The notes beneath the pieces are model-generated. The model saw only the letters and a list, made by a program, of their open reading frames with translations, searched no databases and was not told where the DNA came from. Source: Reclinomonas americana ATCC 50394 (Eukaryota). Taken from it: DNA of 64,000 nt. Below, piece by piece: positions 4,843-56,435 of the stretch. The stretch is from the NCBI GenBank assembly GCA_048213135.1, contig PS015009.1, positions 186,001 through 250,000 on the forward strand, written 5' to 3'. Position numbers and translations under genes: made by a program. How positions within the stretch are numbered: position 1 is the stretch's first letter; the number at the start of each line of letters is the position of its first letter.

Positions 4843-4895
4843 TTTATGCGTTTTATTTACTGTTATAGATGCAATACCAGGTCAAATCCATACAA

Positions 4896-5753
4896 TTACT
4901 TGTACAGGGAAGCAAAACTTTGTGTTAAAGTAAAGCCGCTTTCGTCGATACCATAAGTAATGCCATCTATTTTGGTAGTAAACATGTTATAGAAAATGAT
5001 CGCGAAGGCTGAAGTACCGATACCCAGAGCGGTATTGTACAGGGCCTCGGAGATACCTACTGACAGTTTAGAAGCCGCATCGCCACCGCCTTCACCTTCA
5101 CCGAGAGCAGAGAAGGAACGGATCATACCCAATACGGTACCGAGCAGACCCAACAGGGTGGCTACTGAAGCGATAGTGGAAAGGAATACCAGGTTCTTTT
5201 CCAGCATAGGCAGTTCGAGAGAAGTAGCTTCTTCCACTTCTTTCTGAATAGCCAGTACTTTCTGGTCGGTAGACAGTTCAGTATTGTTGATCATTTCTTT
5301 ATAGCGGTGCAGGCCTGCTTTCATTACATTGCCTACGCTGCCTTTTTGTTTGTCGCATTCTGCCAGGGCAGCATCAACATTTTTATTGGCAAGGTGAAAT
5401 TGTACTTTGCGGATGAAATCAGCGTTGCTGCCTGTTCCGGTGGCTTTGCCGATGGTGAGGAAACGTTCGATAACGAATGTAAGCATGGTCAGGAAAGTTC
5501 CGATCAGGATAGGTACGATGATACCACCCAGGTACATTTTGTTCAGGGCATTTTTAGGGCCATCATGGTTAGGCCAGAACCATCCTTGTCCTGGTTTAGT
5601 GAAGCCGGAAGGGTCGCCAAGGAGGAATCTCCAGATGATATAACCTGCTATTATACAGATTACAGGTGCCAGAATAGAGATGGCATTGCTTGATTTTTTT
5701 ACCTGTACGGAGGTTGTTGGTTTTACGGCTGCAGTCGGTTTTGTTTCTGCCAT
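4896..5753 (-). CDS. exbB: MotA/TolQ/ExbB proton channel protein
   Basis: STIASVATLLGLLGTVLGMIRSF..GISEALYNTALG; start taken at MAETKP. Confidence 0.92.
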   Translation of the reverse strand: MAETKPTAAVKPTTSVQVKKSSNAISILAPVICIIAGYIIWRFLLGDPSGFTKPGQGWFWPNHDGPKNALNKMYLGGIIVPILIGTFLTMLTFVIERFLTIGKATGTGSNADFIRKVQFHLANKNVDAALAECDKQKGSVGNVMKAGLHRYKEMINNTELSTDQKVLAIQKEVEEATSLELPMLEKNLVFLSTIASVATLLGLLGTVLGMIRSFSALGEGEGGGDAASKLSVGISEALYNTALGIGTSAFAIIFYNMFTTKIDGITYGIDESGFTLTQSFASLYK

Positions 5754-18020: not shown

Positions 18021-18113
18021 AAGTCAAAATTCAAAAGTCAAAAGTCAAAAGACGGCGCTTGAATTATCGAGTCCCGTGTTTTGAATTTTTACTTTTTACT
18101 TTTTAATTTTTAG
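18021..18113. repeat. Heptamer-repeat hairpin element, copy 1
   Basis: (GTCAAAA/TTCAAAA)n, then a spacer, then (TTTTGAA/TTTTTAC)n. Confidence 0.8.
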
Positions 18114-18115
18114 TT

Positions 18116-18535
18116 TCAGCCCTTCACCGCCTGTCTCGCGAACAATATCCAGCGTTTGCCTTTCTTCACCCATACTTCCAGCACTTTCAGGTGAAAATTG
18201 CTGGTGGTTCCTTTCAATGTTGCTGTTATATCCGCGATGAAACGAACATTGGCCATATTGCCGTTGATCGTTACGGTAATGCTGTCTTCCTTAAATACCT
18301 GGTAACTGATGTAACCGGTTTCCAGGTCTTTGATCACGTCTGTTTTTGTTTCCACCCAACCGTTGCTGTGTCCGTAACTCAGTGCCTTGTCGGTCTGCTG
18401 GTTAATGGAAACTGTATTTTTTTGTACCAATGCCTGGTGAAACTCCTTTATGGTTGTTTCCAGTTTTTTTTCTTCTGTTTGCGCTGCGGCTGACAGTGAA
18501 AAAAGAACAAATGTTATGGTCAGTATTCTTTTCAA
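18116..18535 (-). CDS. Secreted NTF2-like (DUF4440-type) protein inserted between nuoE and nuoF
   Basis: Signal peptide followed by LSYGHSNGWVETK..LEVWVKKGKRW; probable TTG start at 18535. Confidence 0.7.
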   Translation of the reverse strand: MKRILTITFVLFSLSAAAQTEEKKLETTIKEFHQALVQKNTVSINQQTDKALSYGHSNGWVETKTDVIKDLETGYISYQVFKEDSITVTINGNMANVRFIADITATLKGTTSNFHLKVLEVWVKKGKRWILFARQAVKG

Positions 18536-19035: not shown

Positions 19036-19072
19036 TAATTACTAATTACTAATGACCAATTACTAAATACTT
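19036..19072. repeat. TAATTAC heptamer repeat at the nuoD/nuoE junction
   Basis: taattac-taattac-taatgac-caattac; the complementary-type motif GTAATTA/GTAATTC repeats at 55894-55921. Confidence 0.6.
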
Positions 19073-20302: not shown

Positions 20303-20394
20303 AAGTCAAAATTCAAAAGTCAAAATTCAAAATGTGATCTTAGATTACAATGTCTCCTATTTTGAATTTTTACTTTTTACTTTTTAATTTTTAA
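20303..20394. repeat. Heptamer-repeat hairpin element, copy 2
   Basis: Same arms as 18021-18113 with a different central spacer. Confidence 0.8.
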
Positions 20395-20898
20395 TTATCG
20401 TCCAAACATATCATCATCCTTATCAATCCTCGTCTGGTCTTCCAGCGGGAATTCCTTACGCATGGGGAAATAATCCATTTCATCTACGTTCAGCACACGG
20501 ATGAGGTTAGGATGCCCAACGAAGTTCACCCCGAAAAAATCATAGGTTTCCCTTTCCATCCAGTTGGCCGCCTGGTACAATGCCGTTGCGCTGTACACGT
20601 CGGGTTTCGCGATGTCGGTAAATACCTTGAAACGGATGCGGATGTTATCGGTGAGGTTGTGCAGGTGGTATACCACTGCCAGTTCCGCGCCGGTTTGATC
20701 GGGATAATGAACGGCCTGCAGGTCGGTCATAAAGCGAAAACGCAGTTCCTCATCATCATAAAGAAACTGCAATACTTTTAAGTTGAGGTCTTTGGGCGCG
20801 GTAAAAGTGAGCATACCGTAAGGCTCCTGCCAGTTGGTGAGCTGGTCGCCAAATTTCTCAGTTAGTTTTTGTTGTATGGTCTCGTTCGTTAACGACAT
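20395..20898 (-). CDS. nuoC: NADH-quinone oxidoreductase subunit C
   Basis: ANWMERETYDFFGVNFVGHPNLIR..PMRKEFPL; start taken at MSLTNE. Confidence 0.95.
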   Translation of the reverse strand: MSLTNETIQQKLTEKFGDQLTNWQEPYGMLTFTAPKDLNLKVLQFLYDDEELRFRFMTDLQAVHYPDQTGAELAVVYHLHNLTDNIRIRFKVFTDIAKPDVYSATALYQAANWMERETYDFFGVNFVGHPNLIRVLNVDEMDYFPMRKEFPLEDQTRIDKDDDMFGR

Positions 20899-20995
20899 AA
20901 AGTCAAAATTCAAAAGTCAAAATTCAAAACGGAGAATGCTTCTCAATGAAGTGTTTTGATTTTTTACTTTTTACTTTTTAATTTTTACTTTTTAA
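20899..20995. repeat. Heptamer-repeat hairpin element, copy 3
   Basis: Same arms; fills the whole nuoB-nuoC intergenic space. Confidence 0.8.
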
Positions 20996-26155: not shown

Positions 26156-26250
26156 TGTATTAGGTTTTGAAATGATCAATCGAATTCCAAAACCAGCGCT
26201 GGTTGTTTATTAGATGCGGGGAGATGATGAATCCATAAAAGAAGGTGTTA

Positions 26251-26402
26251 ATGTGCGGATGTGTGAATGTGCAGATATGCGAATTTGTAGATGTGTGAAT
26301 ATGCGAATGTGGGGTGTGCAAATTTGCAGATGAGGGTTGAAATTCCTTCATTCCTTCCTTCATTCCTTCCTTCTTTCCTTCCTTCATTCCTTCCTTCTTT
26401 CC
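26251..26402. repeat. Composite simple repeat: octamer ATGTG(C/T)GA run followed by a TTCCTTCCTTCA run
   Basis: Directly visible; a similar TTCC run occurs at 44054-44086. Confidence 0.75.
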
Positions 26403-30714: not shown

Positions 30715-31905
30715 ATGGCCCAATTGTCATTTCAGCATATCGCCCCATTTTTAAGTACCCGGCAAAACAGGGGCTCCCGCCTGCTCAGTTATATAGGCCT
30801 GGGCATTGGTGTGCTGCTGCTGCTGTGTTCCATACAGCTGTACATCAACATCAACCGGTTGCTCACGAACAAGAACCCGAAGAAGGACGGTTACGATTAC
30901 ATTTCCGTAACCAAAACCATCACCAACGATAACATGACGCAGGACCATAGCTTCACTCCCGCCGATGTGCAGGAACTGAAGACCCAGTCTTTTATCGACG
31001 ACGCCACACCGTTGATCGGCAATAAATTTCTGGTGAAAGCTACTGGCGGTTCAGCCGTACCCTTCAGCGCCGATATGTTTTTGGAATCGATAGATGAAAA
31101 ATTCATAGACACCGTGCCTGCTGCTTTTAAATGGCAGGAAGGACAGGACCTCATCCCCGTGATCATGTCATCCGATTACCTCGAACTCTACAATACTGTA
31201 TTCGCCCCCAGCCGCGACCTGCCGCAGATATCCCCTGCCGGCATTTCCGCCATTATCGTGCAACTGGAACTCTATGGTCCCAACGGACCACAGACCTTCC
31301 GCGGTAACGTAGTCGCACTCAGCGACCGCATCAACTCCGTATTGGTGCCCCCCAACTTCCTCAGCTGGGCCAACAAACGTTTCGGCAATACCGACCATGC
31401 CAGTCCGGCCCGGGTATTCCTTAAAACAAAGGATGCCAACAACCCGCAACTCCTCAGCTTCCTGGAGAGCAAACATTACAGCATCAATAAAGACAAAACA
31501 AAATTCGGCCGGGTGAAACAGGTACTGCAGGGCATTGTCAGCGGCCTCGCCGGCTTCGGCGTACTGGTAATACTGCTGGCCATGGTGCTGTTCTCCTTTT
31601 ACCTGCAACTGATGATTGCCCGCAGCCGGGAGAACCTGCAACTCCTCCTCACCATTGGCTACTCACCCAAATGGCTGAGCCGTACTGTTTCCAAAAAATG
31701 GATACCCATTTACACCTTCGTAGTACTGGGCGCACTGGCCATTACCGCCGCGCTGCACTGGGCCTTCGGGCATTTCATCATCCACGATGCCGGTAATCTT
31801 TCTCCTTTTGTGCATTGGGTGGTGATTGCGGTGGCGGTGGTGTTGCTGCTGATGAGTGTGTGGATTAATTACAGGCTGGTGAAGAAGTTGTTGTACAAAT
31901 TATAA
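30715..31905 (+). CDS. FtsX-like ABC permease
   Basis: One N-terminal TM, a periplasmic domain and three C-terminal TMs; follows the ATPase. Confidence 0.8.
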   Translation: MAQLSFQHIAPFLSTRQNRGSRLLSYIGLGIGVLLLLCSIQLYININRLLTNKNPKKDGYDYISVTKTITNDNMTQDHSFTPADVQELKTQSFIDDATPLIGNKFLVKATGGSAVPFSADMFLESIDEKFIDTVPAAFKWQEGQDLIPVIMSSDYLELYNTVFAPSRDLPQISPAGISAIIVQLELYGPNGPQTFRGNVVALSDRINSVLVPPNFLSWANKRFGNTDHASPARVFLKTKDANNPQLLSFLESKHYSINKDKTKFGRVKQVLQGIVSGLAGFGVLVILLAMVLFSFYLQLMIARSRENLQLLLTIGYSPKWLSRTVSKKWIPIYTFVVLGALAITAALHWAFGHFIIHDAGNLSPFVHWVVIAVAVVLLLMSVWINYRLVKKLLYKL

Positions 31906-31983
31906 AGTCAAAATTCAAAAGTAAAAATGGGAGCAGGAGGAATAACGTTTCTGCAATCGACTTCCCTAAAATAAGGATAATAG

Positions 31984-34543: not shown

Positions 34544-34897
34544 AAGTGTACCGTTTATTTGATGATAAAATGGGCGTGGAAAAGAGAAAGGGCCGGTTTG
34601 TTTCGTTAAAGGAACGCCAAATGTATTACAATCTTCGTGACAACGAATACCACAAAACGACCATCTTACTTTGTGAAATCACATGTTCCAAATTTCCTCA
34701 TGTTAGAATGTCATAAAATCTCGCAAGGTATTCCAACTGTACACTTTTGTACAAAAACCCTAAAACATTGAACAGCAGCAAGTTTTAACGAAAAATAAAA
34801 TCTCTTTTTTACAACCAGTAGCCGCTTTTATAAGTCTATGATAATGCGGTGGATAATAAGCCGCAATAATTATTGTACCTATAAAAATTACCGTATT

Positions 34898-35398
34898 ATG
34901 CCGATAAACAATTTATCGCAGCACCAGGTTGATCCCAAACAGGCGCAGAGCCTCCTTAGCCAGTTACAAACCGTACTGGACACCCTTAATCCCCTCGGGC
35001 GCAACCTTACACCCGAAGAACGCCAGCAGTATGGCAGTATTAATGAACGCAACAAACTCATCACCGGCAAGGCGCTTGATTTTCATACGCAGCAGCCCGG
35101 GTTGCAGAGCCCCGATGTGGATTGGAACGTTTTTGACGCTAGCTGGCAAACCCGCAGCACCCTGGCAGCCATTGAAAGCCTTTGCCAGAGTATTATTGAA
35201 GTAGCGTCTGACACCAGGATCATTCACGATTACGACCTGTACCAAATGACCCTTACCGATTACGACTACACCAAGTACAAGGCCAGCAGCACCACCGCGG
35301 CGGGTGGGTTTACCACCAAATTTGAGGAGATGAGACAGTTTTTTCCCAATCCGAGCGGTGCCAATTCACCCAAAGAGGAAGCGCCTGAAACAAAGTAA
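34898..35398 (+). CDS. Uncharacterised alpha-helical protein upstream of the palindrome array
   Basis: 166-aa ORF (MPINNL..NLTPEERQQYGSINERNKL..SPDVDW..YDYTKYKA..QFFP) followed by a terminator. Confidence 0.8.
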   Translation: MPINNLSQHQVDPKQAQSLLSQLQTVLDTLNPLGRNLTPEERQQYGSINERNKLITGKALDFHTQQPGLQSPDVDWNVFDASWQTRSTLAAIESLCQSIIEVASDTRIIHDYDLYQMTLTDYDYTKYKASSTTAAGGFTTKFEEMRQFFPNPSGANSPKEEAPETK

Positions 35399-35416
35399 TT
35401 GTATAGTTCAATTGTT

Positions 35417-35442
35417 AAGCCCACCGATTGGTGGGCTTTTTT
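35417..35442 (+). terminator. Rho-independent terminator
   Basis: AAGCCCACC-GATT-GGTGGGCTTTTTT. Confidence 0.85.
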
Positions 35443-35463
35443 GTGCCTCGTCAAACCAATATA

Positions 35464-35729
35464 AACCTAACCGCGATAGGTTAATAACCTAACCAGGATA
35501 CGTTACCTAACCTAACCGGGATAGGTCAGCAATCTAACTAGGATACGTTACCCAACCTAACCGGGATAGGTCAATAACCTATCTAGGATACGTTACCTAA
35601 TCTAACTTGGATAGGTTTGTAACCTAACTAGGATAGGTTACCCAACCTAACCTGGATAGGTTTGTAACCTAACTAGGATACGTTACCCAACCTAACCGGG
35701 ATAGGTCAGTAACCTAACCAGGATAGGTT
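35464..35729. repeat. Array of 12 x 19-bp imperfect palindromes (consensus AACCTAACYNGGATASGTY) with alternating 3- and 4-bp linkers
   Basis: Units start at 35464, 35486, 35509, 35531, 35554, 35576, 35599, 35621, 35644, 35666, 35689 and 35711. Confidence 0.95.
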
Positions 35730-35749: not shown

Positions 35750-35971
35750 CTATTCAGGGTCCTGCTCCACGGTAATAACAAGCCGGCGGTTTTCGCACTG
35801 CACGTTCAGGATTTGCCCGCCGGTGAAACCGGTTTGCTGCAGCCATTTGCCGGTAAGGAGTATGACGGGGAAGGTGGCACAAGGCCTGGCCAAATTGTTA
35901 CGATCGAAATGTTTGTTACAAACCGTAAGCCGGCGGCCCCGGAGGGGTGCTTTGTCTTTTGCTGTTTTCAT
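35750..35971 (-). CDS. symE: SymE-family toxin-like protein
   Basis: 73 aa with FPVILLTGKWLQQTGFTGGQILNV..RLVIT, matching the SymE P-x-I-x-L-x-G-x-WL-x3-GF pattern. Confidence 0.75.
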   Translation of the reverse strand: MKTAKDKAPLRGRRLTVCNKHFDRNNLARPCATFPVILLTGKWLQQTGFTGGQILNVQCENRRLVITVEQDPE

Positions 35972-36107: not shown

Positions 36108-36506
36108 ATGACAGCTAGCAACCGCACCATACACCAGGGCCGCAACGTAAAGCGTTTTCGTGAAATGCTGGGCATAAAACAGGATGCCCTTGCCGCCGAC
36201 CTGGGCGACGACTGGAACCAGCAAAGGGTCTCGCTGCTGGAGCAGAAGGAAGCTATTGACGACCGGTTGTTGCAGCAACTTTCCGACGCCCTTAAGATAC
36301 CGGTGGAGGCAATTAAGAGTTTTGATGAAGAGCAGGCAGTGAATGTGATTGCCAATACATTCGGTGATAATGCCTGTGTAGCAAATCCCAACTCTACTTT
36401 TAATTTTAATCCTATTGATAAAATGGTTGAACTGTATGAAAGGATAATCCAGCAGCAAAAGGAAATGATTGATAAGCTGGAGAGGTTGTTGGAAAAGGGG
36501 AAATAA
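36108..36506 (+). CDS. XRE-family helix-turn-helix transcriptional regulator
   Basis: IHQGRNVKRFREMLGIKQDALA..WNQQRVSLLEQKE..FNPIDKMVELYER; TACATTTG box just upstream of the ATG. Confidence 0.9.
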   Translation: MTASNRTIHQGRNVKRFREMLGIKQDALAADLGDDWNQQRVSLLEQKEAIDDRLLQQLSDALKIPVEAIKSFDEEQAVNVIANTFGDNACVANPNSTFNFNPIDKMVELYERIIQQQKEMIDKLERLLEKGK

Positions 36507-39655: not shown

Positions 39656-39904
39656 ATGGCAAAAAACACTTCCATCTTATTAGGAGATTATTTTGACAGT
39701 TTTATTAATGACCAGGTACAAAGCGGGCGTTTCTCTTCTGCCAGCGAAGTGGTAAGGGCTGCTTTACGGCTTTTTGAGCAGGAAGAAAATCAAAAGAATG
39801 AACTGGTAAAAGAACTCAGGAAAGGAGAAAGATCAGGGTTTGTACAAAAATTTGATCGTAAAAAATTTATCACAAACCTCCACAGCAAACATTTGCCCAA
39901 ATGA
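39656..39904 (+). CDS. parD: Type II toxin-antitoxin antitoxin, ParD family (RHH)
   Basis: MAKNTSILLGDYF..SGRFSSASEVVRAALRL. Confidence 0.88.
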   Translation: MAKNTSILLGDYFDSFINDQVQSGRFSSASEVVRAALRLFEQEENQKNELVKELRKGERSGFVQKFDRKKFITNLHSKHLPK

Positions 39905-40200
39905 AATATAAGGTCAGTGCAAAAGCATTGGAGGACATTGAAAACATCTGGCTGTATACTTTTGAGAACTGGTCATTGGAGCAGGCCGACAGGTACATTA
40001 ATTTAATTTTTAACGAAATTGAATATGTTGCCGACAATCCCTATTCCGGAAAAGATTATAATTACATCCGGAAAAATTATTGGTGTGTTAAAGTAAAATC
40101 ACACCTGGTCTTTTACCGGGTTACCGACAAACAGGATTATATTGAAGTGATAAGGGTTTTACACCAGCGAATGGACATTGAGAACCGTTTGAATGAGTAA
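39901..40200 (+). CDS. parE: Type II toxin-antitoxin toxin, RelE/ParE family
   Basis: KALEDIENIWLYTFENWSLEQADRY..HLVFYR..IRVLHQRMD; ATGA overlap with the antitoxin. Confidence 0.9.
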   Translation: MKYKVSAKALEDIENIWLYTFENWSLEQADRYINLIFNEIEYVADNPYSGKDYNYIRKNYWCVKVKSHLVFYRVTDKQDYIEVIRVLHQRMDIENRLNE

Positions 40201-44988: not shown

Positions 44989-45104
44989 CATTCATAGTGG
45001 AGTTCAAACTGTTGCACTACTCATTTTTTAATTTTTACTTTTGAATTTTAAATTTCTACCTTTGCCCCTCATTCCTGTTGTAAAACAGTATAAAACTTCA
45101 CTAC

Positions 45105-55789: not shown

Positions 55790-55919
55790 TTATCCCCGAT
55801 AAGTACAGCAAAAACTGGCTGTTCAATTTCCAGAAAGGATAACCGCTGAAAGGCGGAAAAAGAATAAAGAGAGAAAACCTGTAATGAGAATACGCTAATT
55901 CGTAATTAGTAATTCGTAA

Positions 55920-56435
55920 TTATTTATAAATATCAAGTAGCCCCTCCGGCAGGTTCACAAAAATTTTGCGGTTCTTTTTGTCCATTTTCTGCAGGCTTTC
56001 TTCATGGATGGGGATGAGCGCTTCTTTGCCATTCAGCATCAGTGTGCACAATAACTGGTGGGGCTGTTCAATCACTTCCAATACTTCGCCCAGGTCTTCT
56101 CCCTCATGAATGATATGAAAACCCAGCAGGGATATGGCAGAAGTGGCGGCGGCATATTTTTTAAAGTCTTCTTCGGTAATCCAGACTTCTTTGGGTGTGA
56201 GTTTGCGGGCTGTTTCTTTATCGTCTACACCTTCCAGTTTCAGGAAAGTCTCATTATCGCTTTTGATTTTTGTGACCTGGATAAAATAGGGCAGGAAACT
56301 TCCTTTTTTTTCCTCGATAAAAACGGCCTCCAGGCCTTTGAGTGAAGTCTTCTTCCCGAGGCTGTGCTCCAGTACCAGGTCACCTTTTAAGCCATGGCTG
56401 GCAGCCAGTTTTCCTATTTTGAAATATTGATCCAT
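55920..56435 (-). CDS. rimM: Ribosome maturation factor RimM
   Basis: IGKLAASHGLKG; LIP..LPEGLLD; follows rpsP. Confidence 0.93.
   Translation of the reverse strand: MDQYFKIGKLAASHGLKGDLVLEHSLGKKTSLKGLEAVFIEEKKGSFLPYFIQVTKIKSDNETFLKLEGVDDKETARKLTPKEVWITEEDFKKYAAATSAISLLGFHIIHEGEDLGEVLEVIEQPHQLLCTLMLNGKEALIPIHEESLQKMDKKNRKIFVNLPEGLLDIYK

Follow-up and report, generated by a model that had tools for sequence, protein, structure and literature searches.

A 64,000-nucleotide stretch of the Reclinomonas americana ATCC 50394 assembly (GCA_048213135.1, contig PS015009.1, positions 186,001 to 250,000 of the forward strand), hereafter the window, carries a gene for a hypothetical protein of 166 amino acids (aa) followed by an array of twelve palindromic units. 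We refer to this array-associated protein as A1. Analysis of its relatives shows that protein and array belong together as the halves of a single system conserved in Bacteroidota: a dyad array is kept just past the terminator of the A1 gene or just before its start, and arrays of this kind rarely occur in genomes without A1. The pairing represents a widespread, previously undescribed gene-plus-array system, with no description found in the literature searched, a search outside which subscription journals and supplements lay. We see about an even chance that the arrays are phased platforms of double-stranded DNA coated by A1. All coordinates refer to the window, which is chromosomal as judged by the presence of the nuo operon, hisS and rlmN.

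The window array and its linkage to A1

The three features central to the analysis are:

34898 to 35398, plus strand: A1 gene, encoding an acidic, all-helical, stand-alone protein of 166 aa (homologue search; no known family)
35417 to 35442, plus strand: intrinsic-terminator-like GC hairpin AAGCCCACC/GGTGGGCTT followed by a T-run, between gene and array (read from the sequence)
35464 to 35729, no strand assigned: dyad array of twelve 19-bp units of the AACCTA-N7-TAGGTT type (tandem-repeat search, pattern search, spacing and six-frame stops)

Tandem Repeats Finder (TRF) identified a single strong tandem array in the 64-kb window, at 35464-35729 (period 45, 5.9 copies, 86% matches, score 385); the runner-up among the 58 rows scored 106. 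A regular-expression search of the plus strand for AA[CT]CTA-N7-TA[CG]GT[TC] found exactly 12 units, all in the array and none elsewhere in the window. Likewise, all nine window occurrences of AACCTAAC and all four of GGATACGT fall within it. The unit centres are 22, 23, 22, 23, 22, 23, 22, 23, 22, 23 and 22 bp apart, forming six 45-bp dimers with linkers of 3 and 4 bp. All six odd units end in TAGGTY and four of the six even units in TACGTT, while units 8 and 12 end in TAGGTT. Stop codons close the region in all six frames (8-12 per frame, longest open run 20 codons). The array begins 66 bp past the A1 stop codon (35396-35398), and the terminator-like hairpin lies between them. The initial annotation, which had described twelve 19-bp dyads after a 166-aa gene and its terminator, a strict alternation of linkers, distinct odd and even variants and a non-coding state, is therefore confirmed in nearly every detail; departures from the consensus that it first stated are limited to an AATCTA start in two units and TCT in place of ACY in one.

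It had also been stated that the array is not CRISPR. This holds, since the units abut across 3-4-bp linkers and leave no unique spacers, and a Pfam scan of 40 window open reading frames (ORFs) detected no Cas family. Inspection by eye of both strands beside the array found no Bacteroidota-type -7 motif (TAnnTTTG). Loose ends at 35509 and 35528 in metagenome contigs from close relatives are shifted against the window by one 45-bp dimer, which suggests that strains differ by whole dimers, though repeat contigs may be misassembled.

The A1 family is large and unnamed. An ORF finder places the start of the window gene at 34838 (186 aa), but the homologues all begin at the methionine of 34898, which agrees with the 166-aa length originally given. 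A word-indexed search recovered 280 homologues at E ≤ 0.001 and an exhaustive search 724 representative clusters at 50% identity; the relatives in the best 150 of these clusters are stand-alone proteins of 72-271 aa, with no fused forms. Every source name reads 'hypothetical protein', and no family in Pfam, NCBIfam, PADLOC or PHROGs corresponds to A1. The window protein lacks a Pfam match even at E ≤ 10, and none of the weak matches of other members is to HUH or Y1 families. Two homologues carry the label PF27734.1, which was found in no paper searched. The isoelectric point is 4.6-5.8 in 27 of 28 aligned members.

Structure prediction, proposed in the initial annotation, yielded a confident AlphaFold2 model (predicted local distance difference test score 85.3) of five helices, one of them 55 residues long, but the accompanying fold search matched nothing known. 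Comparison with the PDB by sequence profile gave no match, the best Foldseek match to the PDB had an E value of 0.82, a full VIA-align scan reached a best Z of 5.4, which is noise for helical models, and matches in the ESM Atlas were confined to 'hypothetical protein' clusters. A1 has been seen on chromosomes only: tblastn against plasmids (72,556 records) and phages (50,697 records) returned no match, and none was confirmed in the viral contigs of IMG/VR.

Linkage was assessed in 81 loci, namely the window and 80 loci with A1 relatives taken from contigs of one genome per species. In 60 of the 81, an array with a period of the 21-22-bp family is found no more than 700 bp from A1. Array density near A1 (67 in 110,940 bp) is 23.6-fold that of the outer flank (12 in 469,393 bp). 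The array is downstream of the gene at 42 loci and upstream at 19, with both sides occupied at one, and in 26 of the 42 downstream cases the stretch from stop codon to array contains a terminator-like hairpin. The statement in the initial annotation that genes of this kind are followed by palindrome arrays of ~21-23 bp thus stands with respect to proximity, at about 24-fold enrichment, but not with respect to a fixed side.

Arrays beside A1 comprise 8-20 dyad sites, 21-22 bp apart. The units differ by lineage and share the plan of a 16-19-bp dyad, for example ACSTAAAnnTTTASGT, or AACSTA-N6-7-TASGTT in the window's clade. Higher-order periods of 43-45 or 63-66 bp recur because unit variants alternate. 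In a maximum-likelihood tree of the 81 proteins, members of a well-supported clade agree in array side, period and unit type, and this coherence spans branch lengths of more than one change per site. The pairing has therefore been inherited over long times. The window's clade (eight rows, support 100/99) contains seven arrays, all downstream and with a 22-bp period; the sequence of the eighth locus, L005, ends 58 bp past the gene. Flavobacterium A1 genes belong to two deep clades, both with arrays, and downstream of a divergent A1 paralogue (E 3e-8) in one Flavobacterium genome there is again an array. The co-variation of protein and repeat sequence that had been suggested as a check did not emerge in any simple form.

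When all ORFs of the 81 loci were clustered, no second conserved neighbour of A1 was apparent, the next commonest cluster occurring in seven loci. An unnamed gene adjoins A1 in five loci, downstream in L013, L026, L043 and L053 and upstream in L034; its product is ~800 aa long except in L034, where a 118-aa piece is present, and the two copies scanned have no Pfam match. At L030, a Flavo-1 RNA (Rfam RF01705, 81 bits) occupies positions 4855-4932 of the locus, ~85 bp past the array.

Arrays across genomes

The genome-wide scatter of units was examined in genomes of relatives. The complete Chitinophagaceae genome G001, the record of locus L002, encodes three A1 copies, each with an array, and its unit pattern occurs at 32 sites (5 for the reversed control) clustered in at least six arrays. 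In G004, one unit type forms four arrays, of which only one adjoins A1 and three lie between unrelated housekeeping genes. The spacers that hold G004 arrays away from A1 (L124, L125) also contain copies of another short hairpin repeat, of TTGTCACCCTGTAAGGGTCTC type. G225 has about nine clusters of the array unit type and G002 at least seven arrays. The initial annotation had counted against its own interpretation a genome-wide scatter of the unit as an ordinary repetitive extragenic palindrome (REP). Such scatter is present in part: arrays of the same type also occur at several loci away from A1, and the palindromes of G004, G225 and G001 occupy many intergenic sites as REPs do, but as tandem arrays and not as single REPs. 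Ten congeners compared at hemN all lack the array that G004 has beside this gene, from which it follows that the extra array sites are species-specific; as five of the ten are A1-positive and five A1-negative, the comparison says nothing on dependence on A1.

Co-occurrence of arrays and A1 was then quantified in two samples. Fixed-sequence unit patterns, applied to the order (201 genomes) and the genus (81 genomes), were too lineage-specific to inform and were replaced by a generic pattern of three consecutive well-formed units, for which reversed controls gave 0-1 hits in most genomes and 16 at most. In the genus sample around G004 (81 genomes), A1 was found in 10 of the 12 genomes that are array-positive, against 6 of the 69 that are array-negative (Fisher p 2.4e-7, uncorrected for ancestry); with strong A1 matches only, the table becomes 10/2/2/67 (p 2.2e-9). 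In the order sample around G001 (121 genomes), 5 of the 7 genomes positive for the pattern encode A1, as do 2 of the 114 negative ones (p 2.2e-6), and one A1-positive genome has 110 pattern hits. Individual discordant genomes were inspected. In G209, which is A1-positive and pattern-negative, the strict pattern had overlooked an array beside A1, and in G220 the array is degenerate. The two pattern-positive genomes of the order sample that lack A1 (G030, G047) contain non-dyad direct repeats. G030 contains many arrays of a 21-bp direct, non-palindromic repeat of ACGAATGATTCTGCGTTGCCT type, found on at least five contigs (C12, C14, C15, C23, C42), which is a different repeat class of equal period.

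These distributions bear on the possibility that the arrays are selfish or structural repeats, similar to REPs or bacterial interspersed mosaic elements (BIMEs), that A1 propagates or maintains in the manner of a REP-associated tyrosine transposase (RAYT) and that have no host function. A1 is patchy, occurring in 16 of the 81 genomes in the genus and 7 of the 121 in the order, pattern hits range from 2 to 110 per genome, and the arrays have species-specific sites in repeat-rich spacers. Their alternating unit variants and linker lengths are BIME-like. According to PMC3733652, REPs and BIMEs are likewise intergenic, clustered palindromes with alternating variants, present in some species and absent in close relatives, and one dedicated gene stands beside an element, as in REPtrons, with its presence tracking the repeat family.

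Other properties set A1 and its arrays apart from such elements. A1 is an all-helical protein of 160 aa without HUH or catalytic-tyrosine motifs, without the signature of a tyrosine transposase and without a nuclease or recombinase fold, and it was not matched in plasmids, phages or viral contigs. The arrays are long, helically phased tandems compared with single or paired hairpins, the evidence given below favours double-stranded over single-stranded recognition, and the arrays of G004 have no common flanking ends. Strict helical phasing is not a known property of REPs. REP palindromes carry a GTAG or CGTC tag at one end (PMC3733652), whereas neither tag is present in any of the 12 window units on either strand; some Flavobacterium units begin with ACGTC. 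We assign a low probability to selfish repeats of this kind.

It is far less probable still that the array is a neutral minisatellite produced by slippage, with no partner. The apparent differences of whole 45-bp dimers between relatives' contigs would fit such an origin, but linkage to one gene family across deep clades, together with the genome-level co-occurrence, argues to the contrary.

Candidate binder and state of the arrays

The explanation that we favour is that the arrays act as double-stranded DNA, in which each unit is a predicted site for a two-fold symmetric binder. Two-turn spacing would place all sites on one face of the helix, so that a cooperative protein coat can form. A1 is the likeliest candidate binder, as the only gene tied to arrays both locally and genome-wide, and may act in trans on all arrays of a genome. 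Its gene would stay beside one of them, like ParB genes by parS and RAYT genes by REPs. The same co-occurrence logic tied RAYT to REPs (PMC3733652). Candidate roles for coated arrays include chromosome architecture, an insulator or roadblock, protein titration and repeat self-propagation.

Spacing and symmetry argue for DNA. Units are spaced by 21 bp (99 intervals) or 22 bp (49 intervals) despite widely differing sequences, and this corresponds to two turns of B-DNA. Symmetry near the dyad axis was counted in 108 distinct 16-bp units from 41 loci, with the expectation derived from column composition. The bases 2 bp from the axis are complementary in 73% of units (48% expected) and those 1 bp from it in 45% (30% expected). 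Hairpins cannot pair at these positions, and their symmetry therefore counts for double-stranded DNA. On the two sides of a unit, the fourth half-site base varies independently between C and G, with C-C or G-G hybrids at 32/71 and 11/19 (Fisher p 0.47 and 0.65).

The main rival on this point is that the array is transcribed, either as a multi-hairpin RNA or as a precursor cut to 22/23/45-nt units, and that A1 is its RNA-binding or processing partner, comparable to type III toxin-antitoxin systems or stabilizing 3' structures. Folded as RNA, both strands of the window array are far more stable than shuffled sequences (z -6.5 and -6.7), but the optimum is a tangle of long-range pairing and not twelve hairpins, with an ensemble frequency of at most 0.0016. 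In downstream arrays, mismatches that could form G-U pairs are in excess on the minus strand (159, vs 113 on the plus strand; binomial p 0.006, the units not being independent), which speaks for RNA. Conversely, C-C or G-G mismatches interrupt the middle of the stem in 45% of units, the symmetry reaches an axis where pairing is impossible, and a terminator precedes the array in the 26 downstream loci noted above. The occurrence of arrays upstream at 19 loci and downstream at 42 also implies no fixed transcript order. No Rfam family was found at gathering score on the window array, nor on the arrays of 18 other homologue loci.

DNA is favoured over RNA with moderate confidence, and the array RNA as such seems improbable. 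The preference expressed in the initial annotation for a phased DNA platform over hairpin RNA is upheld by the axis symmetry, the uncompensated fourth base and the ill-defined RNA fold.

Several observations nevertheless weigh against DNA arrays coated by A1. The protein is acidic, without a recognizable DNA-binding domain or fold, and 21 of the 81 A1 loci lack an array by TRF criteria. Two genomes of the genus sample, G237 and G277, are array-positive, yet even a cut-off of E ≤ 1 gave no A1 match in them, and their arrays have no A1-like gene as a neighbour, although both genomes may be incomplete (G277 is only 2.0 Mb). The Fisher tests of both the genus and order samples ignore shared ancestry. 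The unit centres of the window (ACCGGGA/ACCAGGA) are shared with the third A1 copy of G001, yet the window protein is 48% identical to that copy and 53% identical to the other two.

The two remaining observations also speak for array RNA. Dyad symmetry co-varies within 38 arrays (925 Watson-Crick pairs, 756 expected, z 11.7), as hairpins predict; alternating sites for two-fold binders would give the same result. In two metatranscriptome runs of one study (X14, X17), the k-mer depth of array contigs was 107-111, compared with 6.6-7.6 on A1 and 2.9-3.8 on the SymE-like gene described below, but contig depth cannot rank expression because collapsed repeats inflate it and RNA libraries can hold DNA. 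Run X1, of unrecorded kind, gave 7.5 for array contigs, with bins up to 22.5, vs 4.3-7.3. Contigs reveal neither strand nor transcript ends, and transcription of the array is only hinted at.

A second candidate binder is encoded beyond the array, where two genes follow:

35750 to 35971, minus strand: SymE-like small gene, 73 aa, convergent on the array (Pfam SymE_toxin PF08845, E 8.8e-11)
36108 to 36506, plus strand: XRE-family helix-turn-helix (HTH) gene, 132 aa (Pfam HTH_3, E 1.4e-5)

The stop codon of the SymE-like gene, which also matches NCBIfam SymE below the cut-off (E 7.9e-6), is 20 bp from the last array unit, and the XRE gene starts 379 bp beyond the array. The two are divergent, and the SymE-like (AbrB-fold) protein and XRE possibly form a toxin-regulator pair with its 3' end abutting the array.

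XRE proteins bind, as HTH dimers, to dyads of this size. The arrays could be multi-operators of the XRE repressor that control the XRE gene and its small divergent partner, with A1 as a frequent neighbour only. As in XRE/Cro operators, an HTH dimer would fit dyads of 16-19 bp whose half-site centres are 11-13 bp apart, and the window array lies next to and upstream of the XRE gene. Each of the three G001 arrays not beside A1 is 79-240 bp upstream of one of the 29 XRE paralogues in that genome, and two of its three A1 genes have an XRE gene within ~1.2 kb. An array of the 21-22-bp family accompanies 16 of 30 XRE loci, and the layout of A1, array, small minus-strand gene and plus-strand XRE gene recurs in L002/L106 and L004/L108.

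The link to XRE, a genuine rival in the window's lineage, is nonetheless inconsistent. About half of the XRE loci have no array, and an XRE of the window family is present in 6 of the 81 A1 loci and missing within 4 kb in the other 75. G002 and G004, with at least seven and at least four arrays, encode no XRE of this family at E ≤ 1e-5. Sites do not always accompany the XRE gene, nor do they co-vary with it: copies with identical N-terminal HTH regions (L097, L101, L105) stand beside arrays of three unit families. Furthermore, XRE/Cro systems have 2-3 operators, as opposed to 8-20 sites in strict two-turn register. We thus regard XRE as an unlikely owner of the arrays and retain A1 as the candidate binder.

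Many XRE copies of G001 (loci L094-L123) lie beside defence-like genes (TIR_2, DUF4062, AAA_15/AAA_21) or beside a small divergent gene of an unnamed 86-110-aa family without a Pfam match. In L097, L110/L117 and L111 of the same genome, a second array family with a 21-bp period and a GTTTTAAAAtCATTTTAAAAC-type unit adjoins other XRE paralogues; hence more than one unit family shows the two-turn array design.

Relation to known systems and other features of the window

Each known system with which A1 and its arrays were compared fails on a defining feature. The closest resemblance in layout is to plasmid centromeres. The sopC site of the F plasmid consists of twelve 43-bp units, each with an inverted repeat, beside sopB. 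As in sopC/SopB and parC/ParR, a tandem array of about a dozen units with inverted repeats and a period near whole helical turns stands beside the gene of its binder, here a candidate one. In both cases the array is upstream or downstream depending on the system, and cooperative coating is expected. Unlike in plasmid centromeres, however, no NTPase of the ParA, ParM or TubZ type and no other conserved neighbour is found in the window or across the 81 A1 loci. In addition, A1 resembles neither ParB nor ribbon-helix-helix proteins, is absent from plasmid and phage records, and is associated with several arrays per genome at changing sites.

The ToxI/ToxN system similarly pairs an array of short tandem units with a gene of ~170 aa, a terminator lying between the two. 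Here, by contrast, the order is mostly reversed to gene, terminator and array (downstream in 42 of the 60 array loci), and the units are 21-22-bp dyads in place of direct repeats of ~34-40 nt. A1 also has no toxin model in PADLOC or Pfam, and its predicted fold has no match among solved structures. An iteron replication origin was rejected as well, given that the units are dyads and not direct repeats and that no Rep family occurs among the neighbours.

A broader interpretation, which we put forward tentatively as possible, is that A1 and the arrays form an unrecognized repeat-protein partnership, a bacterial counterpart of satellite DNA. Here, a fold-orphan protein that is not a transposase would seed, spread and coat phased arrays, which would serve as architectural or insulating elements or persist as a self-maintaining 'guest', while unit and protein drift together.

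If A1 does bind the arrays, a widespread chromosomal system of Bacteroidota would combine a new protein fold with an unusual DNA architecture: arrays of as many as twenty dyads, strictly in two-turn register, that recur at many loci. This would pose the testable question of how such arrays organize, insulate or parasitize a bacterial chromosome. It would also provide, beside REP-RAYT, a second and mechanistically different case of a gene that predicts a genome-wide repeat family. In addition, a class of calls in Bacteroidota labelled 'questionable CRISPR' or tandem repeat would be explained, and a large family of hypothetical proteins would gain a name and a partner. Experiments on A1 would be ordinary, since several carriers have been cultured, among them, by record title, Flavobacterium dankookense DSM 25687, F. 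hydrocarbonoxydans, Epilithonimonas lactis DSM 19921 and Limnovirga soli.

Further features of the window were recorded in the course of the analysis. At ~4 kb from the array, positions 39656-40200 encode a type II toxin-antitoxin pair, ParD/ParE (Pfam E 2e-27 and 3e-20). Positions 26245-26402 consist of 4.2 copies of a 16-bp repeat and, after them, a TTCC run (15 copies, or five of a 12-bp unit); this stretch lies at the 5' end of a low-molecular-weight phosphatase gene, whose start (26291) it overlaps. Tandem runs of 7-bp units (AAGTCAA, TTTTTAC, TAATTAC and similar; 3.4-5.4 copies) occur in the spacers of nuo genes and elsewhere, as follows:

18021-18116, 19036-19071, 20303-20396, 20899-20994, 31904-31927, 45025-45064 and 55896-55922: 7-bp-unit runs (TRF)

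A heptamer run resembling these is present in the Flavobacterium locus L135.

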